From contig CACEMR010000001.1 in NCBI GenBank assembly GCA_902560725.1, positions 65,027-129,026 on the forward strand: 64,000 bases of DNA, read 5' to 3'. Each line of letters begins with the position of its first letter. The first letter of the stretch is position 1. The notes beneath the pieces are model-generated. The model did no database searches. It saw only the letters and a list, made by a program, of their open reading frames with translations, and was not told the origin of the DNA. The position numbers were made by a program, and so were the translations under genes. This document shows positions 1,658 to 30,639 of the stretch, one piece after another. The DNA is from an uncultured Alphaproteobacteria bacterium. Lineage in GTDB: Bacteria; Pseudomonadota; Alphaproteobacteria; HIMB59; GCA-002718135.

Positions 1658-2424
1658 AAATTAATAATATTGCTGTTACCTTATATACTGTTAGAAATTT
1701 TTGCCAAAATGAAAAAGATTTATTTGAAACTCTAAAAAAAATCAAAAGTATTGGATATAGTAGCATTCAAATCAGTGGTGTTGGTTTAATTAATCCTAAA
1801 ACAATAAAAAAAATGTGCGAAGACTTGAGTTTAGTTATATGTGCTACACATGAACCAAATAAACAAATTATAAACAATACCTACGAAGTTATTGATAAGC
1901 TAAATATTTTTAATTGCGAATATTCAGCTCTTCCTTATCCATTAAATTTAGATATGAAAAACTTAAAAAACATTGATAAATTCATAGATGATATAAATAT
2001 TGCGGGCTCAAAGTTTCATGCAGAAGGAAAGGTGTTATGTTATCATAATCATGCTCTTGAATTTCAAAAAATTCAAAATGAAATAATTTTAGATAGAATT
2101 TATAAAAATACAGATAGTAAATTCATACAAGGAGAGCCAGATATTTATTGGATACAAAAAGGTGGTCAAGACCCATTAATGTGGTGCAAAAAATTAGAAC
2201 AAAGAATGCCATTATTACATTTAAAAGATTTTATAATGATCAATGATCAAGAAAGTTTTTTTGCAGAAGTTGGTTCAGGTAATTTAGATATCAAAAATAT
2301 TGTTAAAACAGCAACTGATTCTGGATGTAAATGGTTTATTGTTGAGCAGGATGAATGTAGTGGTAACCCTTTTGATTCACTAGAGATTAGCTATAATAAT
2401 TTAAAAAAATACGCAGTTACTTAA
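1654..2424 (+). CDS. sugar phosphate isomerase/epimerase (xylose-isomerase-like TIM barrel)
   Basis: 256 aa with an HNHALEF / GEPDIYW / FIVEQD metal-ligand-like pattern typical of AP-endonuclease-2/IolE/IolI-type TIM barrels. ATGA overlap with the upstream oxidoreductase. Confidence 0.65.
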   Translation: MKINNIAVTLYTVRNFCQNEKDLFETLKKIKSIGYSSIQISGVGLINPKTIKKMCEDLSLVICATHEPNKQIINNTYEVIDKLNIFNCEYSALPYPLNLDMKNLKNIDKFIDDINIAGSKFHAEGKVLCYHNHALEFQKIQNEIILDRIYKNTDSKFIQGEPDIYWIQKGGQDPLMWCKKLEQRMPLLHLKDFIMINDQESFFAEVGSGNLDIKNIVKTATDSGCKWFIVEQDECSGNPFDSLEISYNNLKKYAVT

Positions 2425-4647: not shown

Positions 4648-4658
4648 AATTAAATATT

Positions 4659-7779: not shown

Positions 7780-8843
7780 TACTTCATACCTGTACTTGCT
7801 ATTCCAGTAGTTATAAATTTTTGAAGATATGTAAATATAATTGCTATAGGTAATAAAGTTACCATAGTCATTGATAGTACATAGTTCCACTGACTGGTTA
7901 ACTCTCCATGAAATGCATTGAGTCCAATTTGTAATGTATATACTTCACTTTTTGATAAAACTATTAAAGGCCATAAGAAATCGTTCCATCTCCACATTAT
8001 TGAAAAAATTGCTAAAACTGCAATAGCCGGTATAGATAATGGTAACACAACTCTCCAATAAATTGCCCACTCGCTAGCATGGTCCATTCTTGCTGCCTCA
8101 ATAAGCTCTCGAGGTAATGTAAGCATATATTGACGAAGTAAAAAAACTCCTGTTGGTGTTGCTGCACCTGGCAGAATTACACCCCATAATGAATTAATCA
8201 TTCCAAAGTTAGCAACAACATAAAATACTGGAACTAGGATTATGGTTAAAGGAATTAGCAACGTGCCTATTACAAAAACAAGTGCAAAGTTTTTTCCTCT
8301 AAACTCATAAATAGATAGTGCGTAAGCTGCCATTGAATTTATTATTAACGTTATTATTGTTGCAACAACTGTAATAAAAGTTGAGTTTTTAAAATAAAGT
8401 AAAAAATCATACTTCCTTAAAGGGTCGACGTAATTCTCCCATTGTATCTTAAACTCTCTTACCTTTTCTCTTTTATCTATAGGAACCTTGATAGTTTCTT
8501 CTGGATTTAAAGGATCAACCATTTTGGCATTAATTCCAATTCTTTTAATTTGTGCAAGCTGCTTAACTGACCCATCCTCTTGAGTAACATTAAAAATTGG
8601 TAACGGCTTGTCGTATCCTTCAACATCAACTTGAATTTGTGAAAGTGGTAGAATTGTTGGAGGATATTCTTGTATCCCTGCTAATGTTTTGAGTGAAGAT
8701 AAACCCAACCAAACAACAGGACCAAACATTAAAAGAACGCCTAAAAATAAATAAAAATAAGAAAAATAATCTGTCCAATGATATTTATTTTTATATCTTT
8801 TTTTTGTAGCAATTTTTATGATTCTTGAAGCTGTATCAGACAT
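7779..8843 (-). CDS. carbohydrate ABC transporter permease (MalG-like) with a large periplasmic loop
   Basis: Multiple TM segments and the EAA loop EAARMDHASEWAIYWRVVLP. Confidence 0.85.
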   Translation of the reverse strand: MSDTASRIIKIATKKRYKNKYHWTDYFSYFYLFLGVLLMFGPVVWLGLSSLKTLAGIQEYPPTILPLSQIQVDVEGYDKPLPIFNVTQEDGSVKQLAQIKRIGINAKMVDPLNPEETIKVPIDKREKVREFKIQWENYVDPLRKYDFLLYFKNSTFITVVATIITLIINSMAAYALSIYEFRGKNFALVFVIGTLLIPLTIILVPVFYVVANFGMINSLWGVILPGAATPTGVFLLRQYMLTLPRELIEAARMDHASEWAIYWRVVLPLSIPAIAVLAIFSIMWRWNDFLWPLIVLSKSEVYTLQIGLNAFHGELTSQWNYVLSMTMVTLLPIAIIFTYLQKFITTGIASTGMK

Positions 8844-8844
8844 A

Positions 8845-9876
8845 TTAAATTTCTTGATGTTTACTTTCTTTATTTCTACTAAAATATAGTTGCATAAGTG
8901 TTAAAAATAAAAGTACCACACCAAGAACCATTGAGGCTGCAGCTGCAAGTCCAAAATTTTGAACAGATCCTGATGAAGCAAATCCTGTCGTAAATATATA
9001 TTGAACAATTAATGATGTAGATGTTCCAGGTCCTCCACCAGTTAAAACATATATTTCATCGAATGTTTGAACGCCTTTTATTGAAGCAAGAATAAATACA
9101 ACTAATAAATTTGGCATTAAAAGAGGAATAGTTATTCTAAAAAAAATTCTCTCTCTACTAGTTCCATCCATTTCAGCAGCTTCGTATAGATTTGGAGGTA
9201 TTGCCTGAAGACCTGCCAAAACAATCAATGTATAAAAGCCCATATGTGCCCAAATTGATACAAAGATTACTGATGCCATAGCCCAAGAAGGGTCAGTTAA
9301 AAATGATACTTTGTCTCCACCATAAGACTCTATTATAGCATTGAAAGCTCCATTTTTTAAAAGTATCCACTGCCAAATCAAACCAACAACAACAGGTGAT
9401 AATAAAACAGGGAAAAAAAATACCGATCTAAAAAAACCTCTACCAATAATTTTCTTATTTAAGATTACGGCAGTTAAGACCGAAAAGAAAATCATTAAGC
9501 CAACTTGAAAAACAACAAAAAATATAGTGTTATAAACCCCTCTCCAAAAAAAATCTTCTGTACATGTGTTTGGATTTAAGTAGCTCTCACAATCAAATAA
9601 CTGATCATATTGTTTTGTTGTAGGAAGTTCTCTCTCAGCAAATAATAGTTCATCACCTGATGAAAGTGAAAAGAAAAAATTTGCACCAAGTGGGATTATT
9701 ACAAATAATCCAAAAAAAATTAAATTTGGAAGCAAAAAAATATACGGCATATTTCTTACACCAATAATTTTTTGAATTGGCCACATAATTAAATCAATGG
9801 CATGCATTAAAAATGCAAAAGGAATATTTAAAATTCTAAGGAAAAAAATTTTTATTTGATTTCTAATATTTTCCAT
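8845..9876 (-). CDS. carbohydrate ABC transporter permease (MalF-like)
   Basis: TM-rich, with the EAA loop EAAEMDGTSRERIFFRITIPLL. Confidence 0.85.
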   Translation of the reverse strand: MENIRNQIKIFFLRILNIPFAFLMHAIDLIMWPIQKIIGVRNMPYIFLLPNLIFFGLFVIIPLGANFFFSLSSGDELLFAERELPTTKQYDQLFDCESYLNPNTCTEDFFWRGVYNTIFFVVFQVGLMIFFSVLTAVILNKKIIGRGFFRSVFFFPVLLSPVVVGLIWQWILLKNGAFNAIIESYGGDKVSFLTDPSWAMASVIFVSIWAHMGFYTLIVLAGLQAIPPNLYEAAEMDGTSRERIFFRITIPLLMPNLLVVFILASIKGVQTFDEIYVLTGGGPGTSTSLIVQYIFTTGFASSGSVQNFGLAAAASMVLGVVLLFLTLMQLYFSRNKESKHQEI

Positions 9877-9887
9877 TAAAGCACTTT

Positions 9888-9916
9888 GAAAAAAAGCTGC
9901 TCAAAACGAGCAGCTT
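9888..9916 (-). terminator. intrinsic terminator / intra-operon attenuator after the binding-protein gene
   Basis: Read on the minus strand: AAGCTGCTC-GTTTT-GAGCAGCTT (9-bp stem) followed by a T-run. It sits between the SBP stop (9942) and the permease start (9876). Confidence 0.6.
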
Positions 9917-9941
9917 AATTTTTTAATTATTTTGGATATGA

Positions 9942-11222
9942 TTATCCGCCGTATTTTTCTTTAAGTTGTTTTTCAACATCTTCATCCATACGCTCCCAAG
10001 CTTCTTCCATAGTCATTTCACCAACAATAGCTTGTCCTAATCTTGAGATAATTGCGTTAAACATAATACGGTTGTCAACGTGTGCCTGAAGATCAAAAGC
10101 AACTTGATCAATAGTTGGCACTGCGCCAGCAAAAGTGTTTAATGCGTGTTTTGCATTTGGATCATCAGTTTGATAGTCAACTTGTAGATCTAAGTGTCCA
10201 GGAATAGCAAGAACTTGACCAATAAAACTACTTAGTTGTTCTTTACTAGAAAGGTAGTCCATTACTTTTCCAACAGCAGGATTAGCATTGAATGCTAATA
10301 GTGCATTTCCACCTGGCATTCCAGTACATGCAGCAGGACCACATGGAGCTGGTACAGCCCACCAATCAAAATCATCTCCAACTTCGTTTGCGAATCTTCC
10401 AATTTGCCATGAACCACTCATCATGAAAACTACTTCAGCAGCATTCCACCAATCATTTGGGGCATGATATTTTGATCCTGAAACTGATCCCCAAAGATCT
10501 TTAGACATAGTACCTTCTTGATGCCAATCATAAAGCATTTGAGTCATAGCTTTTAAACCATCATCAACAAGTTTTGGATCACCATTTGAGTCAAAATATT
10601 TAGCACCCATTGAAATTGCTGGACCAGAAACACGGTGGCCTGATCTATCCCAAGCCATTGGAATAGGAGTTCCTGTTTTATTTGCTACTTCAATTGAAGC
10701 TGCTGCCCATTCTTCCCAAGTCGCACCAGGGCCTAATAGGTCTACACCAGCTTGTTCAAACAAAGTTTTATTTACATAAGGACCTGTTACAGTCATTGTA
10801 GAATGGAAACCATGTATTGAAGTTGTGTCTCCCGACTTACGATACCAATTTAAAAAAGGTCCAAAACTTTTTTCGTAGTAACTAGGATCAGCTACATAAG
10901 GTGTTATGTCAGCATAATATTTATTTAAACCACCAAGATCTGTAACTCTTGCAATATCAGGGCCTTCTCCAGCTGCCAGCTGAATAGGCAAAGTATTCAT
11001 AATTGCATCGTAAGGTACAATATCTAATATTACATTAATATCTGAATTTGCTGCATTGAACTCATCAATTTGTGCCGCTATTGGCACGTTTTCTTTATCT
11101 CCATCACCATACCACATAATTCTTACGTCAGTGGCAGCAAAAGAAACTGCAGAAATTAAAGTTAATGAGAGTGTAACTAAAGCTACAGAAATAGCTTTAA
11201 AAATAAACTTAAAGTTCATCAT
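9942..11222 (-). CDS. carbohydrate ABC transporter substrate-binding protein (family 1)
   Basis: Sec signal peptide (MMNFKFIFKAISVALVTLSLTLISAVSFAA). About 400-aa mature protein, W/D/G-rich as in CUT1 SBPs. First gene of the transporter operon. Confidence 0.85.
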   Translation of the reverse strand: MMNFKFIFKAISVALVTLSLTLISAVSFAATDVRIMWYGDGDKENVPIAAQIDEFNAANSDINVILDIVPYDAIMNTLPIQLAAGEGPDIARVTDLGGLNKYYADITPYVADPSYYEKSFGPFLNWYRKSGDTTSIHGFHSTMTVTGPYVNKTLFEQAGVDLLGPGATWEEWAAASIEVANKTGTPIPMAWDRSGHRVSGPAISMGAKYFDSNGDPKLVDDGLKAMTQMLYDWHQEGTMSKDLWGSVSGSKYHAPNDWWNAAEVVFMMSGSWQIGRFANEVGDDFDWWAVPAPCGPAACTGMPGGNALLAFNANPAVGKVMDYLSSKEQLSSFIGQVLAIPGHLDLQVDYQTDDPNAKHALNTFAGAVPTIDQVAFDLQAHVDNRIMFNAIISRLGQAIVGEMTMEEAWERMDEDVEKQLKEKYGG

Positions 11223-11358
11223 TTTTCCTCCTATTTTAATTAAACATAAACATATTAAATTATTTTATACAAGTGATAAAATTACAGAAATCATAGCTAA
11301 TTTATTAATAAAAGCTTAATACTATTTAAAAAAAATAAGATAAACTTATAGTAATGTA

Positions 11359-12735
11359 ATGATCGGTTATTTGGCTTTAGCAAGAGATACTTTTGATGTT
11401 AATTATGCAATTGATAAAAAGAATAGATTTGAAAAGTTTATTAATTCTTTTGCAAACGATATAGTAAAATACGATAGAATAATTTCAAATAATGATATTG
11501 GAAAAGAAGCAATTAACTTTTTTAGAAAATTAAATTGTAAGAAGTTTATTATTGCGCAAACAACATTTACAGATGCTAAATTTATCACTAAATTTGCTGA
11601 TATTTTTGATAAACCAATTTATTTTATTAGTTTTAAAGAACCGAGAACAGGAAAAAGATTAAGATTAAATTCATTATGCGGTGTTAATCTTGCTATGCAT
11701 TCATTAATGAAATTTAAACATAAACCTGAATTTTCAATATTCACAAACAATAAACTTTATGATTTTGATAAACTTAATAATTTTATTATTAATACAAAAA
11801 AAAATAAGAAAATTAATAAAATTAGAGAAATAAAAAAAAATAAAAATATTGGTAAAAAGTTATTTTTAAAAAAGAAGAATTTGGGCCTTATAGGTAAAAG
11901 ACCAGAAGGATTTTATACTTGTGATTATGATAGCTTAGAATTAGTTAAAAAATTAAATTACAACCTAAAAAAAATAAAATTAGAATCTTTATTTAATGAA
12001 TCTAAAAAAATAAAAGCTAAAGATATTTTGTTGACTAAAAGCAAAATTAAAAAAAACTTGGATTCTGTTTCTAAACTAAATCAGAAGGAGTTAGATAAAA
12101 GTATATCGATTTTTCATGGTTTAGAAAAAATAAAAAAAGATAAAAAAATTGATACATTTGCAATTAAATGCTGGCCTGAAATGTTTACAGAATATGGATG
12201 TGCTTCGTGCGGCCCAATGGCCATGATGAATGAAAAAGGTGTTAGTTGTGCATGTGAAGCTGATGTATTAGGAAGTGTCAGTTGCGATATATTAAATCAA
12301 ATTACCAATCAGCCATCATTACTTGTAGATGTAGTAGATTGTGATCCACAATCTGATACTGTAGTTTTCTGGCATTGCGGATTAGCGCCAATAAGTATGG
12401 CAAAAAAAAATTCAGCTAGTGCGACTATACACTCAAATAGAAAAAAACCTTTACTTCACAACTTTGCTCTAAAACCTGGAAAGATTACTATTTTTAGAGT
12501 GTCTAAGTCAGAGAATAAATTAAAATTTTTTGTATTAAGAGCAGAAATTTTAAATAAAAAAAATTCATTTTCTGGAACATCGGGTGTTGTTAAATTTGCA
12601 AAAAACACATATCCGAAATTAAAGAGAATATTCTCTTCAGGTATGGAGCATCACTTTGCTTTTACATATGGAAATATTTATTCTGATTTAATAAAAATAA
12701 GTAAACAATTAAATATTCCTATCTACACAGCATGA
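11359..12735 (+). CDS. putative sugar isomerase (L-fucose/L-arabinose isomerase-like family)
   Basis: The C-terminal half (CWPE...CACEADVLG...FWHCG) resembles FucI/AraA-like isomerase cores from memory. The middle is K/N-rich. The assignment is tentative. Confidence 0.45.
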   Translation: MIGYLALARDTFDVNYAIDKKNRFEKFINSFANDIVKYDRIISNNDIGKEAINFFRKLNCKKFIIAQTTFTDAKFITKFADIFDKPIYFISFKEPRTGKRLRLNSLCGVNLAMHSLMKFKHKPEFSIFTNNKLYDFDKLNNFIINTKKNKKINKIREIKKNKNIGKKLFLKKKNLGLIGKRPEGFYTCDYDSLELVKKLNYNLKKIKLESLFNESKKIKAKDILLTKSKIKKNLDSVSKLNQKELDKSISIFHGLEKIKKDKKIDTFAIKCWPEMFTEYGCASCGPMAMMNEKGVSCACEADVLGSVSCDILNQITNQPSLLVDVVDCDPQSDTVVFWHCGLAPISMAKKNSASATIHSNRKKPLLHNFALKPGKITIFRVSKSENKLKFFVLRAEILNKKNSFSGTSGVVKFAKNTYPKLKRIFSSGMEHHFAFTYGNIYSDLIKISKQLNIPIYTA

Positions 12736-13820
12736 ATCAGAAAATTAAATATGGAATTATTGGAACAGGATTAATGGGGCGCGAACATATATCTAACATT
12801 AATCTTATAGAAGAAGCAGAAATCATAGCTATTTCAGATACATGTGAAAATTCTCTAAATGAAACAAAAAGCTTACTAAATAATGATATCAAAATTTACT
12901 CTGACTACAATCAAATATTTAATATTAATGAAATTGATGCTTTTATCATAGCGACCCCTAATTTCACCCACAATGAAATAGTTAAAAAAGCATTAAATAC
13001 AAAAAAACATATACTCGTTGAAAAACCATTATGTTCAAAACTTGAAGATTGCATGGAATTAAAAAAAATATCGTCAGAATATCCTTCGATAATTTGGGTT
13101 GCTATGGAATATAGATACATGCCTCCTATTCAAAAAATGTTGGAAGAAATAAATAAAAAAGAAATTGGTAAATTACAAATGCTATCAATTCGTGAACACA
13201 GATTTCCTTTTTTAAAAAAAGTTGATGATTGGAACAGGTTTCAAATTAATACTGGTGGTACCTTAGTAGAGAAATGTTGTCATTTTTTTGACCTTATGAG
13301 GCTTATAACTAAGAGTGAAGCAGTACAGGTTTATGCTAGTGGTAGTCAGGGAGTTAATCATTTAAATGAAGAATATGATGGTAAAATTCCTGATATAATT
13401 GACAATGCATTTGTTATTGTTGATTTTATAAATGGAATCAGAGGATCTTTAGAACTTTGTATGTTTGCAGAAAACTCTGAAATGCAAGAAGAATTATGTG
13501 TAATTGGTAGTAAAGGTAAAATAGAAACTGGCGTTCCTGCTGATGCATCTGGGAAAGACTCATCTGATGTTAGAATTGGTTTAAGAAATTCAAATGAACC
13601 CAAAAAAGAAAAAGTAATTGTAGATAAAAATATTTTAGCTGCTGGTCAACATCATGGGTCTACTTATTTTCAGCATCTAGAATTCATAAAATCTATTAAA
13701 AATAATTTATTGCCTCAAGTATCTTTGAATGATGGCTTACAAGCTGTTGCTATAGGTCAAGCTGCTGAACTCTCCATTAAAGAAAATCGAGTTATTAAAA
13801 TGAAAGAGTTTATTTTATAA
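12732..13820 (+). CDS. Gfo/Idh/MocA family oxidoreductase
   Basis: YGIIGTGLMGREH, VEKPL and GGTLVEKCCHFFD motifs. ATGA overlap with the upstream isomerase-like gene. Confidence 0.85.
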   Translation: MNQKIKYGIIGTGLMGREHISNINLIEEAEIIAISDTCENSLNETKSLLNNDIKIYSDYNQIFNINEIDAFIIATPNFTHNEIVKKALNTKKHILVEKPLCSKLEDCMELKKISSEYPSIIWVAMEYRYMPPIQKMLEEINKKEIGKLQMLSIREHRFPFLKKVDDWNRFQINTGGTLVEKCCHFFDLMRLITKSEAVQVYASGSQGVNHLNEEYDGKIPDIIDNAFVIVDFINGIRGSLELCMFAENSEMQEELCVIGSKGKIETGVPADASGKDSSDVRIGLRNSNEPKKEKVIVDKNILAAGQHHGSTYFQHLEFIKSIKNNLLPQVSLNDGLQAVAIGQAAELSIKENRVIKMKEFIL

Positions 13821-14744
13821 ATTATAAAAAAAATTTATTATTTTTTCTGCTATAAAATTACTTACTCTTTGATTTGACTCTTCAGTAATACCAGCAATAT
13901 GAGGAGTTAAAATACAATTCATATCAGGATTAATTTTATCTAAAAAACTTCTTTTAACTGGTTCAGTTTCATAAACATCAATTGCGAATCCAGAAATTAA
14001 TTTTTTTAAATAAGCATTTATTAAATCTTTTTCATTTATTATACCACCTCTTGAGGAATTAATTATAATTGGTTTATTTTTCATTTTTACAAATGAATTT
14101 TTATCTATTAAATTTTTTGTATTTTCAGTAAATGGTAAATGAATAGAAATTATATCTGCAGTATTAAAAATATTATCTAGTGTGGTTAATTTAATATTCT
14201 CTTTGCTAAGATCAGTTTCATTTAAATAAGGATCATAGGCTAAATTATTTACTCTAAATGCATTAGCTAAATTTGCTACTTTTCTTCCTATTAAACCAAA
14301 ACCGATTATACCAAGTGTTTTGCCTTGCAGTTCATTAGAACTAATTGATGTTCGAGGCCATTCTCCTTTAATTGTTCTAGAATTTAAATTGGGAATTTTT
14401 CTTAATAGTGATAATGAACTATTAATAACATATTCAGCAACAGAATCAGCGTTCATACCTGTGGCTATTTGAATTTTAATATTATTTTTTTCACAAAAAT
14501 TTGTATCTATATTATCTAAACCAACACCTAATCTACCAATAAACTTAAGTTTTTTTGCATATTGCAAAATATTACTATTTAACTGTGTTTTATTTCTAAC
14601 AATTATAACATCAACATTTTCTATTTTTTTTTCAATCAAATCAGAATTTTTCCAAATTTCATCATCATAAATAATTTCAAATTTTTTATTAAGTAAATCG
14701 ATAGCAGATTGATCCATAAACTCTGTAATCAAGATTTTATTCAT
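13815..14744 (-). CDS. D-2-hydroxyacid dehydrogenase (SerA/GyaR-like)
   Basis: LGIIGFGLIGRKVA NAD motif, SRGGIINE and TPHIAG. Confidence 0.8.
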   Translation of the reverse strand: MNKILITEFMDQSAIDLLNKKFEIIYDDEIWKNSDLIEKKIENVDVIIVRNKTQLNSNILQYAKKLKFIGRLGVGLDNIDTNFCEKNNIKIQIATGMNADSVAEYVINSSLSLLRKIPNLNSRTIKGEWPRTSISSNELQGKTLGIIGFGLIGRKVANLANAFRVNNLAYDPYLNETDLSKENIKLTTLDNIFNTADIISIHLPFTENTKNLIDKNSFVKMKNKPIIINSSRGGIINEKDLINAYLKKLISGFAIDVYETEPVKRSFLDKINPDMNCILTPHIAGITEESNQRVSNFIAEKIINFFYNL

Positions 14745-15649
14745 AAGATTTTTATAACTTTAATTTTTTTTGAAAATCTGCTAACAGAATTTAGATTAGG
14801 AATTGAATACACGCCTCCACTCTTCATACATTTTAATGTAGCAGTTGATGTTGCAAAAATTATACTTTGGGTAATGTTCTTTTTTTGATTTAAAGCTGAG
14901 GCAAACGCACCATGAAATACATCACCTGCACAGTTTGTTTCTACTACTTTTACTTTGGGGGGTTTGCAATGATATAGATTGCCATCCTCAATCCACAAAA
15001 CTCCATTTGAACCTAAAGTAACTGCAACAAATTTATTCGTTTCTTTGTAAATATCTAATAGTTTTTTTTGAATATTTCCTTTTTTTTTATATTCTTTTAT
15101 TCCTTCTTCAGAAAAAATTGGATGAGAGGCATTTTTAACAATCGATTTTATTTTTTTTGATAATTTGAAATTGTCAAGATCAGCAACACAAAATATTTTT
15201 TTCTTTTGTGTTTTTTTAGAAATAAATTCTGATAATTCTACCCATCTACTGTCAATGGAGTAAACTTTATTTTTATTAAAGTTTAAATCTGGTTTCTTAG
15301 TATAATTTAACAATTTAACATCATTATAAGCTGCTAATAACCTTTCACCATTTTTATCTTCAATGACATAGCTTTGTGATGTTTGAGCATTTTTAATAAA
15401 TATTGAATTTTTTGTATTTATTGAATTCTTTTTAAACTCGCTGATTAAAAATTTTGATGCGTCGTCATTCCCAAATCTACCTATAAATTCTGACTTACAT
15501 CCTAATTTTTTCGCTGTAAATGATGCAACTGCTGCAGATCCGCCAAGTCTTCTCTCTATTTTTTTTGATAAAATTTTAATTGGTTTTTTTGGAAGTTTAT
15601 CAACTTTGCTTACATGATCTAAGAATATTGATCCAATACAAACTATCAT
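14741..15649 (-). CDS. PfkB-family carbohydrate kinase
   Basis: 302 aa with the C-terminal PfkB signature TNCAGDVFHGAF. 4-nt overlap with the downstream dehydrogenase. Confidence 0.8.
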   Translation of the reverse strand: MIVCIGSIFLDHVSKVDKLPKKPIKILSKKIERRLGGSAAVASFTAKKLGCKSEFIGRFGNDDASKFLISEFKKNSINTKNSIFIKNAQTSQSYVIEDKNGERLLAAYNDVKLLNYTKKPDLNFNKNKVYSIDSRWVELSEFISKKTQKKKIFCVADLDNFKLSKKIKSIVKNASHPIFSEEGIKEYKKKGNIQKKLLDIYKETNKFVAVTLGSNGVLWIEDGNLYHCKPPKVKVVETNCAGDVFHGAFASALNQKKNITQSIIFATSTATLKCMKSGGVYSIPNLNSVSRFSKKIKVIKIL

Positions 15650-15661
15650 AAAATTTAAAAC

Positions 15662-16231
15662 TTATAAGTAAGGGACCAAGCCTATGTATTTTCTAAACCT
15701 ATCTCTTATTGATATTGGATGAATTGGTATTGGCTTCACTGAAACATTACCTGAATTTATTCTAGATATTATAACATAAGAATTATTTTTATCTTCTATT
15801 GCTTGGTCTAATCTTTTTGATGTATCTTCACCGTTGCACTCTATAACTTTTTTACAACCAGAACCTATTGCAACCTCTTTTAAAGATGTTGCTTCATTTG
15901 TAAAAGTTTTCTGATCACCAGTTGAGCCATAGGATCCATTATCAATTATTAACAAAGTATAATTATTAGGCGCTCTGTTACCTATAGTTGCTAAAGTATT
16001 CATGTTCATTAATACTGATCCATCGCCATCAATACTAACAACTTCTTTATTTTGAGATAAAGCTAAACCTAAACCAATAGAAGATGATAGTCCCATGCTA
16101 CCAAGCATATAAAAATAATTTGGCTGATCATTAATTTGATATAATTCTTGTGATGGTAATCCAATATTACAAATAACAAGTTTATCTTTTAAACTCTCTT
16201 GTAATTTCTCTAATAGGTCAAATCGATTCAT
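15662..16231 (-). CDS. ThDP-dependent decarboxylase beta subunit (ComE-like; sulfopyruvate/phosphonopyruvate decarboxylase family)
   Basis: 189 aa with the ThDP-Mg motif GDGSVLMNMNTLATIGNRAPNNYTLLIIDNGSYGSTG. The size fits ComE. Confidence 0.75.
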   Translation of the reverse strand: MNRFDLLEKLQESLKDKLVICNIGLPSQELYQINDQPNYFYMLGSMGLSSSIGLGLALSQNKEVVSIDGDGSVLMNMNTLATIGNRAPNNYTLLIIDNGSYGSTGDQKTFTNEATSLKEVAIGSGCKKVIECNGEDTSKRLDQAIEDKNNSYVIISRINSGNVSVKPIPIHPISIRDRFRKYIGLVPYL

Positions 16232-16728
16232 TCATCATCCTTCATTAGATCAAAATCACATAAAATTGCTACTGGAGACTCAATAATTTTTGCATGTTCT
16301 GTAAAAGTAGTGATTTTATTTAAATCATTTTCAGAGGAGCAATGAAGCATAGGTATCTTGAGGGTATGTAAAATGTCTTCGGTGATTTTAGCCATACCAC
16401 CTTGTGCGCCAACTTGTTCTCCTGGTGTCCCTCTATAGCTTATTAGAAAAACAACAGGTAATTGATATAGTTGCAAAAGTGATACAATTGCATTTACAGA
16501 ATTACCAATTCCAGTATTTTGCATCATAATACAAGGTAACTTATCGCCTAAATAAGCACCAGCACAAATTCCCATCCCCTCTTCCTCTCTTGGAACTGCT
16601 GAATAATAAACTTCATCATCCTTTTCTAAAATTTCAATCATATTAGCTAACAATTTACACGGGACACTTAAATAAAAGTTTACTCCACCTTTTTTAAGAC
16701 TAGTAATTATTTTTTTACTCATTTTCAT
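16228..16728 (-). CDS. ThDP-dependent decarboxylase alpha subunit (ComD-like)
   Basis: 166 aa with the pyrimidine-binding domain pattern SVPC...REEEGMGICAGAYL...MQNTGIGNSVNA...YRG. 4-nt overlap with the beta subunit. Confidence 0.75.
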   Translation of the reverse strand: MKMSKKIITSLKKGGVNFYLSVPCKLLANMIEILEKDDEVYYSAVPREEEGMGICAGAYLGDKLPCIMMQNTGIGNSVNAIVSLLQLYQLPVVFLISYRGTPGEQVGAQGGMAKITEDILHTLKIPMLHCSSENDLNKITTFTEHAKIIESPVAILCDFDLMKDDE

Positions 16729-16769
16729 TTTTAGCGCTCTTATAGGTATACATATGTTAAAACAATAAA

Positions 16770-17825
16770 TTAATTTAAGAAGTCATTTCTTAGTTTAATT
16801 TTTGTTGATCTTTTATAGATTTCTCCTTTTTTTAAAATTGGTGAAGGAAAACTAGAATGATTTATTGCATCTGGAAATATTTGTGTTTCTAAACACATCC
16901 CAAATTGAATGCCATATGCTTTATTATGTTTCCCATTGTACTTATCTTTCATCATATTACCTGTATAAAATTGTATTCCAGGTTGGTCAGTAAAATATTC
17001 AACACCCATTCCTGTTTTGGAACTATAAATTGTGGCACTTGGATAAATTGTATCACTTTTAATTAGAGAATAATTATGATCAATACCCCCACTATCTAAA
17101 AAAGCTTTATCTATTTTAAAAAATTTATTTAAGTCAAATTTTGTATCCTTAACATCTATAAGATTTCCTGTCGGAATGGACTGGTCATCAGTTTCGCATA
17201 TTGAATTTGAATTTATTTTTACAAAATGATCAATAATATTTTGGTAATGATTATCATGACCATGAAAATTCCAATAGTTGTGATTAGTTAAATTGACTAT
17301 GGTATCCTTATCAGCAGAAGCAATAAAATTAATTAAAATTTCATTATCATCATTCAATTCATAAACTGTTTTGCAATCTAAATTACCTGGATAGTTTTCT
17401 TCTAAGTCTTTAGAATAATAATTTAAAGTGCATCTTGTAAAATTTTTTTCATTTTTTATTTCTTTTATTTTCCATATTTTTTTATTAAAACCCTCTTTGC
17501 CTCCATGAAGATGATTAGGTGGTGTGTTTGAAAATAAATTATACTCCTTTTGATTTAATATAAACTTACTATTGCCAATTCTATTGCACACTCTTCCAAT
17601 AATTGAATTAAAGTATCCGTCAGCTTGAAGAAGGTCTTCAAATTTATCATAACCAAGTAAAACATCTTCCCTGTAATGTGGATTATGAAAATTTGGAATC
17701 AACACTTCATGCATATAACCGCCTAAAGTATAGAATTTTATTTTATAATTATTTGAATTCTCTATTTCAATAATATCAATATCTAAATTATAATTATTTG
17801 GTAATTTTGAAATATTGTATTTCAT
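16770..17825 (-). CDS. aldose 1-epimerase (mutarotase family)
   Basis: 351 aa with NHLHGG, NLTNHNYWN and MCLETQ motifs typical of the GalM family. Confidence 0.85.
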   Translation of the reverse strand: MKYNISKLPNNYNLDIDIIEIENSNNYKIKFYTLGGYMHEVLIPNFHNPHYREDVLLGYDKFEDLLQADGYFNSIIGRVCNRIGNSKFILNQKEYNLFSNTPPNHLHGGKEGFNKKIWKIKEIKNEKNFTRCTLNYYSKDLEENYPGNLDCKTVYELNDDNEILINFIASADKDTIVNLTNHNYWNFHGHDNHYQNIIDHFVKINSNSICETDDQSIPTGNLIDVKDTKFDLNKFFKIDKAFLDSGGIDHNYSLIKSDTIYPSATIYSSKTGMGVEYFTDQPGIQFYTGNMMKDKYNGKHNKAYGIQFGMCLETQIFPDAINHSSFPSPILKKGEIYKRSTKIKLRNDFLN

Positions 17826-18742
17826 TAAACTTTTCTAACGCGTTCTTTATTATAGTAATTTTGACGTAGATAAATAATTATACCACCGGCTATAATAAAT
17901 AAAGCGCCTGGAAATAGTTGATCTACTGGCCATTCACTAAAAAATATCCATCCTAAAATTAAAGCGAAGAATATTTCTATATAATCAAAAGGCATAATTT
18001 TACTTAATTCAGCTTTTCTTGAACCATATATCAGCAAAAGAACACCAGTTCCCCCAGCTAAACCCATTATAAACAATACAACTAAATCATATAAATTTTT
18101 GAAATTTTCCCACATTCCAAATGAAATAACTAAGATTGCTGAACAGATAACAGTCCCAATATTTGCATATAAATTAATTAAAGGCACAGGAGTATCATTA
18201 GAAAAATTTAAAGCTGTAACTCTTGCAAGAGAGTAACCGAATGCAGCCATTACAGGAAGTAACATATAAAAATTAAAACTTTCAGACCAAGGTTGCATAA
18301 TAAATATTATCCCAACAAAACCAGTTAAAACTGCTAATGTTTTATACCATCCAAATTTTTCACCAAGAAGAGGTATTGCTAATAACGTAACCATCATAGG
18401 TCCGGTATATTCCATAGTTGCTACCAAAGCATAAGGTAAATAAAGATATGATGTATATAAACATAGTTGAGCAAAAGACATTATTAGTCCTCTTGCTAAG
18501 CCGAAACGCCATCTTTTTATTACTAATTTTCTTCCACTTGCATGCCAATCTTTAGAGAAATATAAAACGATAAAACATGGAACCATTCCAAATAGATTTC
18601 TAAAAACTGATAATTGTGCGGCTGGATAATCGTTACGTAAATATTTTATTGCAATACCCATGCAGTCTAGCAAAAATAATCCTGATAAAGAAAGGGCAAC
18701 AGCTATAAATAAATTACTTTTTAACCACAATTTACACCACAT
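17825..18742 (-). CDS. DMT-superfamily (EamA-like) transporter
   Basis: About 10 predicted TM helices and a two-EamA-repeat architecture. The start overlaps the upstream ATPase gene by 22 nt, and no alternative ATG precedes TM1. Confidence 0.75.
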   Translation of the reverse strand: MWCKLWLKSNLFIAVALSLSGLFLLDCMGIAIKYLRNDYPAAQLSVFRNLFGMVPCFIVLYFSKDWHASGRKLVIKRWRFGLARGLIMSFAQLCLYTSYLYLPYALVATMEYTGPMMVTLLAIPLLGEKFGWYKTLAVLTGFVGIIFIMQPWSESFNFYMLLPVMAAFGYSLARVTALNFSNDTPVPLINLYANIGTVICSAILVISFGMWENFKNLYDLVVLFIMGLAGGTGVLLLIYGSRKAELSKIMPFDYIEIFFALILGWIFFSEWPVDQLFPGALFIIAGGIIIYLRQNYYNKERVRKV

Positions 18743-19725
18743 CGATCTACCAAATGATCTGGCTCAACTTCAACTAATCCCATTTCTACATTTACTTCCT
18801 TGCCATCTGCTGAGGCATGAGGGCATCTTGTTCTAAAAACACATCCAGAAGGTGGGTTCATTGCACTTGGTATCTCTCCTTCAAGTTCAATTGCTTTTGA
18901 TTTATTTTCAGGATCAATAGAGGGGATAGAAGATAATAATGCTTTTGTATAAGGATGTTTAGGATTGCTAAATAGCTTTCTTGATGGAGCCATCTCCACA
19001 ATGTGACCAAGATACATTACAGCAACAATATCACAAACATGAGCTACAACACTTAGATCATGACTTATAAATAAGTATGTTAAGTTCAATTCATTTTGAA
19101 GTTGTTTTAAAAGATTTAAAATATCTGCCTGAATAGATACGTCTAATGCTGCAACACTTTCATCTGCAACAATAAATTTTGGATTACTCACTAAAGCTCT
19201 TGCAATAGAAATACGTTGTCTTTGTCCTCCTGAAAAAGCATGAGGGTATCTTCTTAAATGCTCTAAATTTAATCGACATTTAGAAGCAATTTCTCTCACT
19301 TTTTCATCAGTTTCTTGACGTGAATTTGTAATCTTCATAACCTCTAAGGGTTCTGCGATTATATCTCTAACTGTCATTCGTGGGCTAAGAGCTGCATAGG
19401 GGTCTTGAAAGATTAATTGTGCTTTTTTTCTATAATCTTTCATTTCCCTTGAAGTAATAGTTGTTAAATCATAATCTCTCTCGTCATCATGAAAAATTAC
19501 ATTGCCTTGACTAATTTTGTTAGCTCCTAATATTGCTCTACCAAGAGTAGTTTTACCTGAACCAGATTCACCAACCAAGCCAAAGAAAGATCCTTTTTTA
19601 ATTTTAATATTAATATTGTTAACAGCTTTTATTTTTTGTTTTTTTGATAGAAAATTTTCTTGATAATCAAAAGAAACGGAAAGATTATTTACTGATACAA
19701 TATTTTCACTCATATTTTTCCACAA
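18721..19725 (-). CDS. Opp/Dpp-type ABC transporter ATP-binding protein (F-type) with a 4-Cys C-terminal tail
   Basis: Walker A GESGSGKTT, FSGGQRQR and FIVADESVAALD. The tail reads [10 protein letters not shown]...DRCGVNCG. Confidence 0.9.
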   Translation of the reverse strand: MWKNMSENIVSVNNLSVSFDYQENFLSKKQKIKAVNNINIKIKKGSFFGLVGESGSGKTTLGRAILGANKISQGNVIFHDDERDYDLTTITSREMKDYRKKAQLIFQDPYAALSPRMTVRDIIAEPLEVMKITNSRQETDEKVREIASKCRLNLEHLRRYPHAFSGGQRQRISIARALVSNPKFIVADESVAALDVSIQADILNLLKQLQNELNLTYLFISHDLSVVAHVCDIVAVMYLGHIVEMAPSRKLFSNPKHPYTKALLSSIPSIDPENKSKAIELEGEIPSAMNPPSGCVFRTRCPHASADGKEVNVEMGLVEVEPDHLVDRCGVNCG

Positions 19726-20696
19726 TCAACACCACATTTATCTAACCAATGACCAGGTTTAACTTCAACTAAACCCATCTTAATATTTTCTTCTTTACCT
19801 TCCTGTGAAGCATGAGGGCATCTTGTTCTAAAAACACATCCAGTAGGTCTATCAAGAGGACTTGGGATATTACCAGGTATTGGTGTAAGCGGGGCATCTA
19901 AATTATTAATATCAGGAAGAGCATTTATTAAACCTTTTGTATAAGGGTGCATCGGATTTTTTAAAATTTCATTTACTGGTCCTTGTTCCACTACACTTCC
20001 AAGATACATTACTGCAACATCATCTGCTACTTGTGCGATAACACCAAGATCATGAGTAATAAATATAACACCCATATTGAATTCTTTAATAATATCTTTC
20101 ATTAAATTTATTACTTGTGCCTGGATAGTCACATCTAAAGCTGTTGTAGGTTCATCAGCTAACAATAGTTTAGGCATTGTTGATAATGCCATAGCAATCA
20201 TTGCACGCTGTCTCATGCCACCTGATAGCTCAAAAGCATATTGATTAAATCTTTTTTCAGCATCTGCTATCCCCACTCTATTTAACATGTCTATTGATAT
20301 ATTTTTTGCCTCTTTTTTATCTAGAGGTTTGTGCAGCATAAGCTGCTCAACCATTTGACTGCCTATTTTAATGGCAGGTGCAAAACTAGCCATGGGTTCT
20401 TGGAAAATCATTGATACTTTTCCACCACGAATCTTTTTTAAATCATTTTTCGACGTAAATTTTAAAACATTTTCACCATCAATTATTATTTCAGCATTAT
20501 CATTATAAATAGTATTGCCTGGATTAAGCTGCATTATTGATTTTGCTGTAACAGATTTACCAGATCCTGACTCTCCAACAATTCCTAAAACCCTACCTTG
20601 ATCCAATGTTAAAGACACATTATCTATTGCTGTTATGCGACCTTCATCAGTATCAAATTTAACATCAAGGTTATTTATTTCTAAAAGATGACTCAT
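19710..20696 (-). CDS. Opp/Dpp-type ABC transporter ATP-binding protein (D-type) with a 4-Cys C-terminal tail
   Basis: [17 protein letters not shown] and [12 protein letters not shown]. The tail reads [10 protein letters not shown]...DKCGVDCG. Confidence 0.9.
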
Positions 20697-20698
20697 AA

Positions 20699-21859
20699 TT
20701 ATTTAGTTTTATGTGGATCTGCTGCATCTCTAAGACCATCTCCGACATAAACAAATGTTAAAATTAAAACAACTAAGAAAAAGACTGGTATGAAATACCA
20801 TTGATAGTTTAACAAAACATCTGCCTTTGTTGCATTTTGTAAAAGTACTCCTAGTGAATTAACAGGCTCTCTAAGACCTAATCCTATAAAACTAAGTGCT
20901 GTCTCTGATAAAAGCATGTAAGGAAAACTGATTACTAAATCTACAATGATGTAACTGGTAAAACTTGGTAATAAATGCCTTATAATAATATGTGTTGATG
21001 ATGCACCACACATTTGAGCAGCTAAAATATATTCTTGACTTCTTTCACTTAATAAATGTGTTCGAACACGTCTTGCTAATGTTGGCCATGAAATTAATCC
21101 TAACAAACACGATATAAAGAAAAATCGTAATTCTGAACTCCACTCAAGCGGTGCAAAAGCTGCAAGGCACATAAAAAGTGGTATAGGAGGTACTGTCCTA
21201 ATTGCATCAGTAAACATTTGAAGGACACTATCTATCCATCCACCATAGTATCCCGATATTCCTCCAATAATAAGTGATAAAACAAATGATATAAAAACCC
21301 CAAGAGTTCCAACTGCAAGAGAGATATATATGGCGCTTAAGGTTCTACTAAATAAATCTTTTCCTGCTTTATCTGTACCAAAGAGATGAATTCCACCTTC
21401 ATCAACACCAAATAAATGCGTATTAAAAGTAAAGCCAGGAATTTTAAAATCAAACATCTTTCCAGGAAGATTAATATTAAAATTAAAAACTTTATACTCC
21501 CAACCTTTCACAAAAAAATAAACATATCTTCTTTTTTCAGTATCAGTTTTATATATCCATCTAAAATTTGTATCTGCTCCTCTATATTTTGTTAATGTAT
21601 GTAAAAATGGTCTTGCTGAAAATCCATTTTCATCCCAAAACATCGGTATTTGTGGTGCGCCATTTTCATAATCTTTATCTCTTCCTTTAATTGTTGGATC
21701 ATAGGGTGATAAAAATTCAGAAAATAAACTGCAAACTATCATGAATAGTAAAATAGAACCTGCAATCATAGCCGCTCTATTTCCAAAGAATCTAGTTCTT
21801 ACTAATTGCATTTGGGTTGCAGTATAATATGCTTCTTTTTTTCTAGAACTAACCTCCAC
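20699..21859 (-). CDS. Opp/Dpp-type ABC transporter permease (C-type)
   Basis: TM-rich with an extended periplasmic N-terminal loop. BPD-transporter core (LSERSQEYILAAQMCGASSTHII). Confidence 0.85.
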   Translation of the reverse strand: MEVSSRKKEAYYTATQMQLVRTRFFGNRAAMIAGSILLFMIVCSLFSEFLSPYDPTIKGRDKDYENGAPQIPMFWDENGFSARPFLHTLTKYRGADTNFRWIYKTDTEKRRYVYFFVKGWEYKVFNFNINLPGKMFDFKIPGFTFNTHLFGVDEGGIHLFGTDKAGKDLFSRTLSAIYISLAVGTLGVFISFVLSLIIGGISGYYGGWIDSVLQMFTDAIRTVPPIPLFMCLAAFAPLEWSSELRFFFISCLLGLISWPTLARRVRTHLLSERSQEYILAAQMCGASSTHIIIRHLLPSFTSYIIVDLVISFPYMLLSETALSFIGLGLREPVNSLGVLLQNATKADVLLNYQWYFIPVFFLVVLILTFVYVGDGLRDAADPHKTK

Positions 21860-22862
21860 CCATAACTCCTTTCCTTATTCTTGGATCCATAATTGCTAAA
21901 ATTATATCTGTTACAAAATTTACAAAAACTATTGTTGCAGTAAGTAAAAATATTATCGCTCCTGCTAATTGTTGATCATTCGATCTAGCTAATGCTTCAA
22001 TTAAAAGTGCTCCTGCTTCAGTTAAAATTAGAATTAATGCCACAATTGGTAGTGCGCTAAAAATTCTATTTAAATCAAATCCAATTGAGTTAATAACAGG
22101 TCCAAGTGAATGTTTTGCAGGATAACGCCATAACAAGCTCATGCCTGATACACCTCTAGCTCTCGCTGCCATTACATATAACTTATCATTTTCATCTAAC
22201 ATTAGTGCTCTTACAGTTTGTAATGCAAAAGCTGTTGCATTCCAGCCTAAAACAAAAATAGGTAACCACGCTCTACCCAAAAAATCCATTAGTTTATCAG
22301 ATGACCAAGGTTGATTTTCATATTCTTGTGAAAATAATCCAGTCATCGTATCTCCGTAATAAACAGTCATAAAAAGCATAATACAAAGAGCAACCAAAAA
22401 ATTGGGGAGAGCTATTCCAAGATAGCTTACGAATTTAAGTGTATTATCTAAGGATGCATATTTCGTCGTGGCTGAAATGATTCCTACAGGTATGGCAATT
22501 AAATATGAAAATATTAATGCAACTAAACATATGGTTAAGGATAAAGTAAACCTTCCACTTAAAAGTTCATTAATATTCATTCTAAGAATACAGCTATCAC
22601 CAAAATCCTGCTTCACCACAATATCAGAAATCCATTTTCCATATCGATATAGAAAGGGTTTATCTAAACCCAAACGAACTTTTTCAGCTTCAATATCTTC
22701 AAATGTTATCTGTGAACCTTGAGTATTCTTAAATGCCAGGTATCTCTCAGCACATGTCCCTGGGACTAATTCCATTAAAGAAAAAACAATAAAACAAACT
22801 ATGAGTAAAGTTACTATTGCTAAAAAAGCTCTTGTAAAAGTAAATTGAATAAAATTAATCAT
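21849..22862 (-). CDS. Opp/Dpp-type ABC transporter permease (B-type)
   Basis: TM-rich, with an EAA-like loop (YVMAARARGVSGMSLLWRYPAKH). Confidence 0.85.
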   Translation of the reverse strand: MINFIQFTFTRAFLAIVTLLIVCFIVFSLMELVPGTCAERYLAFKNTQGSQITFEDIEAEKVRLGLDKPFLYRYGKWISDIVVKQDFGDSCILRMNINELLSGRFTLSLTICLVALIFSYLIAIPVGIISATTKYASLDNTLKFVSYLGIALPNFLVALCIMLFMTVYYGDTMTGLFSQEYENQPWSSDKLMDFLGRAWLPIFVLGWNATAFALQTVRALMLDENDKLYVMAARARGVSGMSLLWRYPAKHSLGPVINSIGFDLNRIFSALPIVALILILTEAGALLIEALARSNDQQLAGAIIFLLTATIVFVNFVTDIILAIMDPRIRKGVMGGG

Positions 22863-22897
22863 AATCCGTTCTTGTTAATTTTTAATTAAGAATATGT

Positions 22898-22936
22898 AGA
22901 AAAAAGAAAAGCGGCAATAAAAAATTGCCGCTTTTT
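22898..22936 (-). terminator. intrinsic terminator / intra-operon attenuator after the binding-protein gene
   Basis: Read on the minus strand: AGCGGCAAT-TTTTT-ATTGCCGCT (9-bp stem) followed by TTTCTTTTTTC. It lies in the 94-nt gap between the SBP stop and the first permease. Confidence 0.6.
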
Positions 22937-22956
22937 ATAATATTTATTTGTTTATC

Positions 22957-25005: not shown

Positions 25006-25121
25006 ATGTTTTCTCCTATAAGATAAATTTATCGTATACTTTTTTTGTATACAAATTAGAAGTTTTAGCAAAAATATTTTACAAATTTGTTACAATTTTC
25101 TGTTAAAAGATGTGTATTTAT

Positions 25122-30611: not shown

Positions 30612-30639
30612 TTTCTTTCTATCAACTTTATAAATAATC

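Follow-up and report, generated by a model that had tools for sequence, protein, structure and literature searches.

Two enzyme sets for sulfoglycolysis of the Embden-Meyerhof-Parnas type (sulfo-EMP) have been defined by Pfam content, sulfo-EMP1 (mutarotase PF01263, isomerase PF07221, kinase PF00294, aldolase PF01791) and sulfo-EMP2 (mutarotase PF16161, isomerase PF02952, kinase PF00365, aldolase PF01116), and hybrid mosaics of the two sets occur in Proteobacteria (Sharma et al. 2023, PMC10665668). C3 sulfonates such as sulfolactate and 2,3-dihydroxypropane-1-sulfonate (DHPS) are degraded by a different enzyme set that, according to the literature, leads from SlcD, ComC or SlcC through the sulfopyruvate decarboxylase ComDE to Xsc and Pta. 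These sulfolactate routes start from an imported C3 sulfonate. A bifurcated form of sulfolactate degradation has reportedly been found in Roseovarius nubinhibens. Sulfoglycolysis and biomineralisation coexisting in one bacterium was called unusual in a 2025 study of Paracoccus wurundjeri (PMC12421959). The stretch of DNA described here is a 64-kb piece of contig CACEMR010000001.1 from an uncultured alphaproteobacterium (hereafter, the window). It carries a six-gene minus-strand operon that encodes a ComD/ComE-type pair among sugar enzymes and that converges on two plus-strand genes for a candidate sulfoquinovose isomerase and a candidate sulfoquinovosidase.

We propose that the locus is probably a two-part sulfonate catabolic system of a HIMB59 (AEGEAN-169) bacterium, in which a sulfoglycolysis island is coupled to an exit through an SlcC-like dehydrogenase, ComDE and Xsc. 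The enzyme families are all known; what is new is the joining of a hybrid sulfo-EMP set to an SlcC-like/ComDE exit towards Xsc, and the host lineage. An earlier note, made from the letters of the window, had suggested that the sugar-style operon around ComDE may make sulfoacetaldehyde for Xsc from a sulfonated sugar, a sugar acid or a C3 sulfonate. In silico, that core idea is supported by the ComDE model scores, the gene contexts of outgroup ComDE loci, a kinase closest to YihV, a dehydrogenase of the SlcC/SerA clade, and the adjoining genes for a candidate isomerase and a candidate sulfoquinovosidase.

Judged by its Pfam content, the upper part would be a hybrid sulfo-EMP1/2 set, since mutarotase PF01263, isomerase PF02952 and kinase PF00294 (with aldolase PF01791 in some relatives and none in the window) match the published definition. 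The locus resembles the sulfo-EMP clusters of E. coli (yih) and Bacillus urumqiensis (sqv/sqi) in its upper-pathway Pfams, a dedicated candidate sulfoquinovosidase and tight clustering. It differs from them in that the window holds neither an aldolase nor a sulfolactaldehyde reductase or dehydrogenase, in a C3 product that is predicted to be routed to the SlcC-like enzyme and ComDE instead of being excreted, and in its host, a streamlined oligotrophic marine alphaproteobacterium. With the sulfolactate routes it would share the lower chemistry, from sulfolactate through sulfopyruvate and sulfoacetaldehyde to acetyl phosphate and sulfite, but in this locus candidate sulfosugar enzymes are encoded together with the decarboxylase in one operon, and an SlcC/SerA-like dehydrogenase takes the place that SlcD or ComC has in those routes. 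The tandem sulfofucolytic-sulfolactate sulfolyase pathway of P. wurundjeri (PMC12421959) likewise combines sulfosugar cleavage and C3-sulfonate biomineralisation in one locus with an SlcC link. There, however, an Entner-Doudoroff-type upper pathway for sulfofucose leaves through ComC and SuyAB to pyruvate, whereas the route predicted here is of EMP type and leaves through ComDE and Xsc to acetyl-CoA.

Open reading frame (ORF) families were assigned with Pfam and with NCBIfam at its curated equivalog cut-offs, and structural relatives were sought in the PDB. The ComD-type alpha subunit scored 161.5 bits against TIGR03845 (cut-off 147.95) and the ComE-type beta subunit 222.7 bits against TIGR03846 (cut-off 221.5), both passing the sulfopyruvate decarboxylase models. 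Neither subunit passed the phosphonopyruvate decarboxylase (Ppd) model TIGR03297 (cut-off 312.5; beta 132 bits, alpha 100.5 bits), where the scores lay 60-90 bits under those for the sulfopyruvate models, or the IolD model TIGR04377 (beta 22.7 bits; cut-off 715). The split, two-subunit architecture that had been read from the sequence is borne out, with TPP_enzyme_N and TPP_enzyme_C on adjacent genes and no middle domain, and the motifs SVPC, REEEG and MQNTGIGN of the 166-aa protein and GDGS...DNG of the 189-aa protein, the latter pair of blocks belonging to thiamine diphosphate (ThDP)-Mg binding, can be read in the translations. When 1.84 billion cluster representatives were searched exhaustively, the beta subunit had no full-length relative above ~50% identity outside its own cluster. 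The ten nearest full-length outgroup ComE representatives (43-51% identity) all matched TIGR03846 best, and none reached the Ppd cut-off. The nearest outgroups (46-52% identity) sit in coenzyme M contexts: in metagenome loci, ComDE lies directly beside ComA and ComB (L120), a ComC-type Ldh_2 dehydrogenase (L103) or a pyridoxal phosphate enzyme with HcyBio (L105). No phosphoenolpyruvate (PEP) mutase was found among the annotated ORFs flanking outgroup ComDE or among those annotated in the window. The ComDE of archaeal coenzyme M biosynthesis belongs to the same split alpha/beta ThDP family, but the context here is catabolic, with no ComA, ComB or ComC-type gene nearby. Homology and gene context together make sulfopyruvate the very likely substrate of the heteromer.

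The most diagnostic genes of the locus are the two next door to the operon. No sulfoquinovosidase had been visible to the earlier note, a statement that is overturned by a candidate GH188 sulfoquinovosidase and a candidate sulfoquinovose isomerase, both on the plus strand (Table 1). NCBIfam matches the isomerase to a single model, NF048012 ('sulfoquinovose isomerase SftI'), over its full length at E 2.5e-87; no PDB relative of it was found. The closest solved structures to the 362-aa protein are SqgA enzymes, namely 8QC2 (E 2.7e-106) and 8QC3 (1.9e-102) of Kaur et al. (2023) and RdSqgA, 8ZN9 (3e-94), of Ma et al. (2025), and its identity to the solved sulfoquinovosidases is 45-48%. According to the structural paper on ArSqgA, catalysis involves Lys107, Tyr136, Glu189, His193 and His321, and the sulfonate is held by Arg166, Leu170 (backbone) and Lys172. 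The window protein keeps all five catalytic residues (K98, Y127, E180, H184, H307) and the sulfonate triad (R157, L161, K163), and all eight positions are invariant in 58 sequences, the window protein and 57 homologues from relatives. This makes the protein a candidate sulfoquinovosidase, which would act on sulfoquinovosyl glycerol. It has the fold family and the eight functional residues of ArSqgA, FlSqgA and RdSqgA, and as in those systems the gene lies in a sulfoquinovose cluster that has no GH31 enzyme. It differs in its identity to the characterised enzymes (42-50%) and in its company, a sulfo-EMP-type cluster and ComDE where the Roseobacteraceae have sulfoquinovose monooxygenase (sulfo-SMO) clusters. 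The published Tara Oceans census of sqgA used a cut-off of 54% identity to RdSqgA. Because all 58 HIMB59 homologues are only 41.6-49.3% identical to RdSqgA, the lineage went uncounted in that census.

Within the operon, the best PDB match of the kinase is the E. coli sulfofructose kinase YihV (7AG6, E 1e-39, 32% identity), followed by a second match at 7e-24, and K27, R138 and the catalytic D244 of YihV are conserved in the window kinase and 64 relatives. In the 309-aa dehydrogenase, a string search, with no alignment to a reference, found VRN, GRLG, SSRGG, ETEP and PHIAG, which we read as catalytic Arg, Glu and His together with an anion-binding Arg. SlcC falls within the SERA clade or next to it, and 3-phosphoglycerate is not a substrate for it (PMC6303947); its substrate is (S)-sulfolactate, the enantiomer derived from sulfoglycolytic (S)-sulfolactaldehyde (PMC12421959). 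The dehydrogenase is a candidate SlcC-like (S)-sulfolactate dehydrogenase, which would make sulfopyruvate.

The ORF list confirmed the coordinates that had been given for the six minus-strand genes at 13815-18742, and Pfam agreed with their proposed families (2-Hacid_dh, PfkB, TPP_enzyme_C, TPP_enzyme_N, Aldose_epim and EamA). The junction overlaps are likewise as described, at 14741-14744 (4 nt, dehydrogenase and kinase genes), 16228-16231 (4 nt) and 17825 (1 nt). The 22-nt overlap claimed between the EamA gene and the Opp ATPase gene (18721-18742) exists if the ATG at 18742 is taken, but it is not conserved, because in relatives the EamA ORFs are 299 aa long and start ~30 nt past the end of OppF. 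The kinase gene follows comE on the same strand after 12 nt, and this short gap, together with the overlap of the kinase and dehydrogenase genes, suggests one transcript. The sftI-type and sqgA-type genes overlap by 4 nt and converge on the operon. A strong bidirectional, terminator-like hairpin (13 pairs) separates the gene for the Opp binding protein from that for the first permease, and no comparable hairpin was found from there to the operon end at 13815. The promoter scan gave fewer matches than in shuffled sequences, and the Rfam scan gave no match.

The EamA carrier may possibly move sulfonate or sulfite. The divergent CUT1-type ABC system is a tentative candidate for the import of sulfoquinovose or sulfoquinovosyl glycerol: a sugar ABC system fills this position in all island variants, its type differing between them, and a comparison that sought a solved sulfoquinovose-binding protein gave no strong PDB relative of the binding protein, the best matches being generic sugar-binding proteins (1.1e-08). 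Directly upstream of the Opp operon is a CehA/McbA-family (PHP-type) metallohydrolase gene, which holds the same position in at least eight related loci.

Genes for Xsc and Pta had been placed 13-19 kb from the operon in the same window, and both assignments stand above curated cut-offs. Between them and the operon sit genes for an alanine dehydrogenase and an omega-aminotransferase, the enzymes through which taurine classically enters this Xsc hub. The taurine-type module also holds a second EamA carrier, CysQ and a Ca/Na antiporter, as well as two small unannotated ORFs.

With every substrate and reaction, the transporters, two missing steps and the flux to Xsc inferred, the proposed route would run as follows. 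Sulfoquinovosyl glycerol would be imported, perhaps by the CUT1-type system, and SqgA would free sulfoquinovose from it. The mutarotase would supply the right anomer for conversion to sulfofructose by the SftI/SqvD-type isomerase, and the YihV-type kinase would form sulfofructose-1-phosphate. An aldolase, in-cluster only in some relatives and here encoded elsewhere or a housekeeping enzyme, would yield dihydroxyacetone phosphate and (S)-sulfolactaldehyde, and an aldehyde dehydrogenase, of which the window holds none, would oxidise the latter to (S)-sulfolactate. From there the SlcC-like enzyme would give sulfopyruvate, ComDE would release CO2 to leave sulfoacetaldehyde, Xsc would form acetyl phosphate and sulfite, and Pta would convert acetyl phosphate to acetyl-CoA. 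In this way five of the six carbons would be kept by one cell and the sulfur set free, instead of a C3 sulfonate being excreted. The stronger statement, that HIMB59/AEGEAN-169 bacteria fully mineralise sulfoquinovosyl glycerol in single cells through hybrid sulfo-EMP enzymes, a LacD-type or housekeeping aldolase, the SlcC-like enzyme, ComDE, Xsc and Pta, is one that we put forward with less than even confidence.

Table 1. Features of the window, with positions, strands and the matches behind each assignment.
Feature	Position	Strand	Match or remark
SerA/SlcC-clade D-2-hydroxyacid dehydrogenase, 309 aa	13815-14744	-	Pfam 2-Hacid_dh + 2-Hacid_dh_C
PfkB-family kinase, candidate YihV-type sulfofructose kinase, 302 aa	14741-15649	-	Pfam PfkB (PF00294)
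ComE-type sulfopyruvate decarboxylase beta (predicted), ThDP-Mg binding, 189 aa	15662-16231	-	TPP_enzyme_C, TIGR03846
ComD-type sulfopyruvate decarboxylase alpha (predicted), pyrimidine-binding, 166 aa	16228-16728	-	TPP_enzyme_N, TIGR03845
Aldose 1-epimerase, candidate sulfoquinovose mutarotase, 351 aa	16770-17825	-	Aldose_epim (PF01263), 2.5e-67
EamA/DMT carrier, 305 aa	17825-18742	-	Pfam EamA, two repeats
Candidate SftI/SqvD-type sulfoquinovose-sulfofructose isomerase, 458 aa	11359-12735	+	PF02952 (Fucose_iso_C), NF048012
Candidate GH188 NAD+-dependent sulfoquinovosidase SqgA, 362 aa	12732-13820	+	PDB 8QC2, 8QC3, 8ZN9
Sulfoacetaldehyde acetyltransferase Xsc, desulfonating step	34028-35797	-	TIGR03457 939.7 bits vs 676.4; NF005713 1015 vs 620
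Phosphate acetyltransferase, Pta type	29712-30611	+	NF006045 295 bits vs 282, C-terminal PTA part
Alanine dehydrogenase and omega-aminotransferase	27138-29593	-	TIGR00518 484 bits vs 392; NF052567 586 vs 500
Taurine-type module as a whole	27138-35797		
Two small unannotated ORFs	31502-32303		
Opp/Dpp-type ABC transporter (two ATPases, two permeases, 704-aa binding protein)	18721-25071	-	Upstream, same strand
Terminator-like hairpin	22906-22936		Bidirectional, 13 pairs
CehA/McbA-family (PHP-type) metallohydrolase	25122-26030		
CUT1-type sugar ABC transporter (binding protein 9942-11222, permeases, UgpC-like ATPase)	5687-11222	-	Divergent from sftI-sqgA
GFO/IDH/MocA oxidoreductase	551-1657	+	
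Xylose-isomerase-like TIM-barrel protein	1654-2424	+	
403-aa ORF	2417-3628	-	No family match
GFO/IDH/MocA oxidoreductase	3628-4647	-	
GFO/IDH/MocA oxidoreductase	4659-5687	-	
374-aa 2-hydroxyacid dehydrogenase	6766-7890	-	Embedded in ABC transporter operon
Permease gene preceding the 374-aa dehydrogenase gene	7779-8843		

Conservation was assessed with one genome per GTDB species. Eighty loci were returned, with ComE identities of 75-82%, and were examined to 10 kb on each side, many of the absences being contig ends. The analysis establishes gene presence, family membership, conserved functional residues and conservation across the lineage, and gene order and orientation are always the same. 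On the upper side the Opp genes occur in 64-69 of the 80 loci, EamA in 72 and the mutarotase in 74; ComD is present in 79, ComE in all 80, the kinase in 65, the SlcC-like gene in 61, SqgA in 58 and SftI in 49. The sulfosugar-ComDE order is retained in 49-65 of the 80 HIMB59 species representatives, with the block syntenic in about 60, and an arrangement that recurs in the same order in most of them exceeds chance. Within 10 kb of ComDE in roughly 68 more distant loci from varied metagenomes, the analysis found no sulfosugar gene, no SlcC-like gene and no Xsc, and the wiring therefore looks lineage-specific.

The earlier note had looked to the Pelagibacterales, but the relevant order is HIMB59 (HIMB59/AEGEAN-169), not Pelagibacterales proper. 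The single-amplified genomes (SAGs) AG-337-I02, AG-912-N10, AG-912-F03, AG-893-F05 and AG-447-C07 are classified in the supplement of the HIMB59 paper as o__HIMB59; f__GCA-002718135; g__AG-337-I02. We assign the source to this lineage because the sugar-ABC flank and OppB of the window are 97-99% identical in protein sequence to AG-912-N10 and AG-912-F03. Divergence is mosaic: nucleotide identity to the closest SAG, AG-912-F03 (locus L015), is 90-95% at 5.4-10.8 kb, left of the island, drops to 68-80% from sftI through OppD and is 79-84% beyond. Against each species representative, the ComDE-sulfosugar block of the window shows only 55-87% protein identity, although Tara contigs contain it exactly.

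A number of observations weigh against the two-part sulfonate system favoured here. The beta subunit lies just 1.2 bits above the TIGR03846 cut-off, and the NF048012 score of the isomerase, 293 bits, is below the equivalog cut-off of 700. N109 of the Lys-Arg-Asn (KRN) sulfonate triad of YihV is Ala in all 65 kinases examined, a further difference from the sulfo-EMP clusters. The best NCBIfam and PDB matches of the 309-aa dehydrogenase are short phosphoglycerate dehydrogenases (1WWK, 3.5e-57), and it could be an ordinary enzyme of that kind. The earlier note had drawn a parallel with YihR and YihV; the kinase is nearest to YihV, and the mutarotase is GalM-like by both NCBIfam and PDB and for that reason is not callable as sulfosugar-specific, though PF01263 is the sulfo-EMP1 mutarotase family (PMC10665668).

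Two steps are also missing from the window. The Pfam and NCBIfam scans covered most window ORFs of at least 110 aa, and tblastn was run against the window with an aldolase from a related genome (L077), the class I fructose-bisphosphate aldolase of L059, a GH31 protein and an aldo/keto reductase. Neither the family scans nor tblastn found a sulfofructose phosphate (SFP) aldolase in the 64 kb, the family scans found no aldehyde dehydrogenase or YihU-type reductase there, and the GH31 and aldo/keto reductase queries had no tblastn match. The route had been called incomplete on paper, and with no aldolase or sulfolactaldehyde dehydrogenase in the window, that description is accurate. A PF01791 aldolase gene lies directly upstream of sftI-sqgA in seven related genomes (L058, L065, L070, L071, L073, L077 and L079) and in one metagenome contig (L093). 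The protein is above the NF009498 subfamily cut-off, with 8TNF as its best PDB match, and it resembles LacD rather than YihT (E 2e-17 to YihT), which sets it apart from the aldolases of described sulfo-EMP clusters; by its sequence it is callable only as LacD/DeoC-type.

The remaining contrary evidence concerns how closely the two parts belong together. About ten genomes keep Opp-EamA-mutarotase-ComDE with no kinase, SlcC-like, SqgA or SftI gene within 10 kb (L012, L055, L061, L064, L066-L069 and L080, at about 10000-12000 in each). In these loci ComE is followed by an aldo/keto reductase gene (L061) or by UxuA and an agmatinase-like gene. This persistence of ComDE outside the island implies that it is not dedicated to sulfoquinovose. 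The window itself opens with a UxuA fragment, on which basis 551 to about 15649 behaves as a flexible island, or insertion, beside a core ComDE module. The island genes have 52-80% amino-acid identity to relatives, against up to 97-99% for the sugar-ABC genes of the left flank and 93-98% for OppB and OppC, and island content differs between genomes in sugar ABC systems, GH31 genes, sulfatase with its formylglycine-generating enzyme, and extra GFO genes. The core-only genomes, the insertion-like span and the divergence of the island genes, together with the documented use of DHPS and sulfolactate by SAR11-type bacteria, would fit the main, though rather unlikely, alternative, in which ComDE, EamA and the mutarotase form a general C3-sulfonate core feeding Xsc and the sulfoglycolysis island is merely adjacent. 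Sulfopyruvate would then come from sulfolactate, DHPS or cysteate, and carbon from sulfoquinovose might leave the cell in the form of sulfolactate or DHPS, as it does in classical sulfoglycolysis, in which case the two parts would not have to be a single pathway. Such a separation sits poorly with the position of the kinase and SlcC-like genes, close behind comE on the same strand, and with the finding that the SlcC-like gene, the link from sulfolactate to ComDE, travels with the island rather than with the core. This alternative differs from the two-part system only in how tightly the parts are coupled. The mutarotase gene is retained with ComDE even in the core-only variants.

That the locus serves no sulfonate at all appears highly improbable to us. 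The ThDP enzyme would then act on phosphonopyruvate, 3-phosphohydroxypyruvate, hydroxypyruvate or another 2-oxo acid, beside a short SerA and ordinary hexose genes. The closest solved structure to ComE, 9IZ3, is indeed annotated as a putative split phosphonopyruvate decarboxylase (E 3.7e-23), and the marginal score of the beta subunit, the phosphoglycerate dehydrogenase matches and the GalM-like mutarotase would all be in keeping with it. The Ppd scores, however, are far under their cut-off, PEP mutase is lacking from the annotated ORFs and outgroup neighbourhoods examined, the nearest outgroups belong to coenzyme M contexts, the Arg-Leu-Lys sulfonate triad of SqgA is kept in 58 of 58 sequences, the kinase is much nearer YihV than ribokinase or PfkB, and Xsc is encoded on the same contig. 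A cyclitol-like pathway, with the split ThDP enzyme standing in for IolD beside IolG-like oxidoreductases, an IolC-like kinase and a TIM-barrel protein, deserves scarcely any credence: four GFO/IDH/MocA genes and a xylose-isomerase-like TIM barrel at 551-13820 and a weak IolC match of the kinase (69.6 bits; cut-off 300) recall it, but IolG (137 bits; cut-off 355) fails as IolC and IolD do, no IolB, IolE, IolJ or IolA equivalogs were found, the enzyme has no IolD middle domain, and the closest GFO gene to the operon encodes SqgA, which carries the sulfonate pocket. Both alternatives that the earlier note had kept open, replacement of IolD and a non-sulfonate 2-keto-acid decarboxylase, are thus disfavoured; model scores and gene context led us to reject both the cyclitol/IolD reading and the phosphonate one.

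About 10 billion tonnes of sulfoquinovose, a sulfosugar of plants and algae, are produced per year, and marine production of sulfoquinovose compounds amounts to ~1.5 Pg C per year according to published estimates. Its degradation in the sea is attributed by reviews and primary papers up to mid-2026 to Roseobacteraceae, Alteromonadaceae and Oceanospirillaceae; they describe Pelagibacter and other SAR11-type oligotrophs as scavengers of small sulfonates only. In the literature searched, no paper makes a link between ComDE and a sulfoquinovose cluster, or between HIMB59 and sulfoquinovose; neither this wiring nor this lineage has so far been credited with sulfoquinovose breakdown. If the two-part system operates as proposed, it would constitute a new exit from sulfoglycolysis, through ComDE and Xsc. 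It would add to the known degraders an abundant oligotrophic one, HIMB59/AEGEAN-169 being cosmopolitan streamlined bacterioplankton, and would account for part of the 'expanded sugar metabolism' noted in the AEGEAN-169 genomics paper, which does not mention sulfonates. Under the stronger statement, of full mineralisation in single cells, the pathway would be the first sulfoglycolytic one to end in acetyl-CoA and sulfite rather than in an excreted sulfonate, and HIMB59 would represent a large sink for the carbon and sulfur of sulfolipids in the surface waters of oligotrophic oceans, one that has so far gone uncounted.

Some related loci are organised differently. A Pelagibacteraceae-labelled metagenome-assembled genome from the Eastern Tropical North Pacific (ETNP) oxygen minimum zone (L059, 1-20567) has another architecture, in which a sugar ABC system and a GH31 glycosidase gene (804 aa, replacing the mutarotase) are followed by ComD and ComE, with the SlcC-like gene directly after ComE, and then by SqgA. 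Further on come another ABC system and genes for a class I fructose-bisphosphate aldolase, a GFO oxidoreductase, an aldo/keto reductase and a regulator of the LacI type; no kinase or isomerase gene occurs within the locus examined. In 32-33 loci, among them L001, L024 and L029 (position about 5430-7490), an insertion of two extra GFO/IDH/MocA genes (329 and 352 aa), which the window lacks, separates OppF from EamA. Sulfatase genes recur near the cluster (L003 at 18061-20039, L052 at 2-1048, and upstream of OppA in 26 loci), accompanied in L003-type islands by a formylglycine-generating enzyme, a hint that sulfated sugars, too, are handled by this flexible region.

At its left end, the window has what looks like a second sugar system (551-7890), with three extra GFO/IDH/MocA oxidoreductases, a xylose-isomerase-like TIM-barrel protein, an ORF of 403 aa and a second 2-hydroxyacid dehydrogenase embedded in the ABC transporter operon. 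In its gene content it is similar to systems for oxidoreductive (3-keto) glycoside cleavage. Taken at its longest, from a GTG start, the ORF of the 374-aa dehydrogenase shares 112 nt with the preceding permease gene, and its true start probably lies further downstream.

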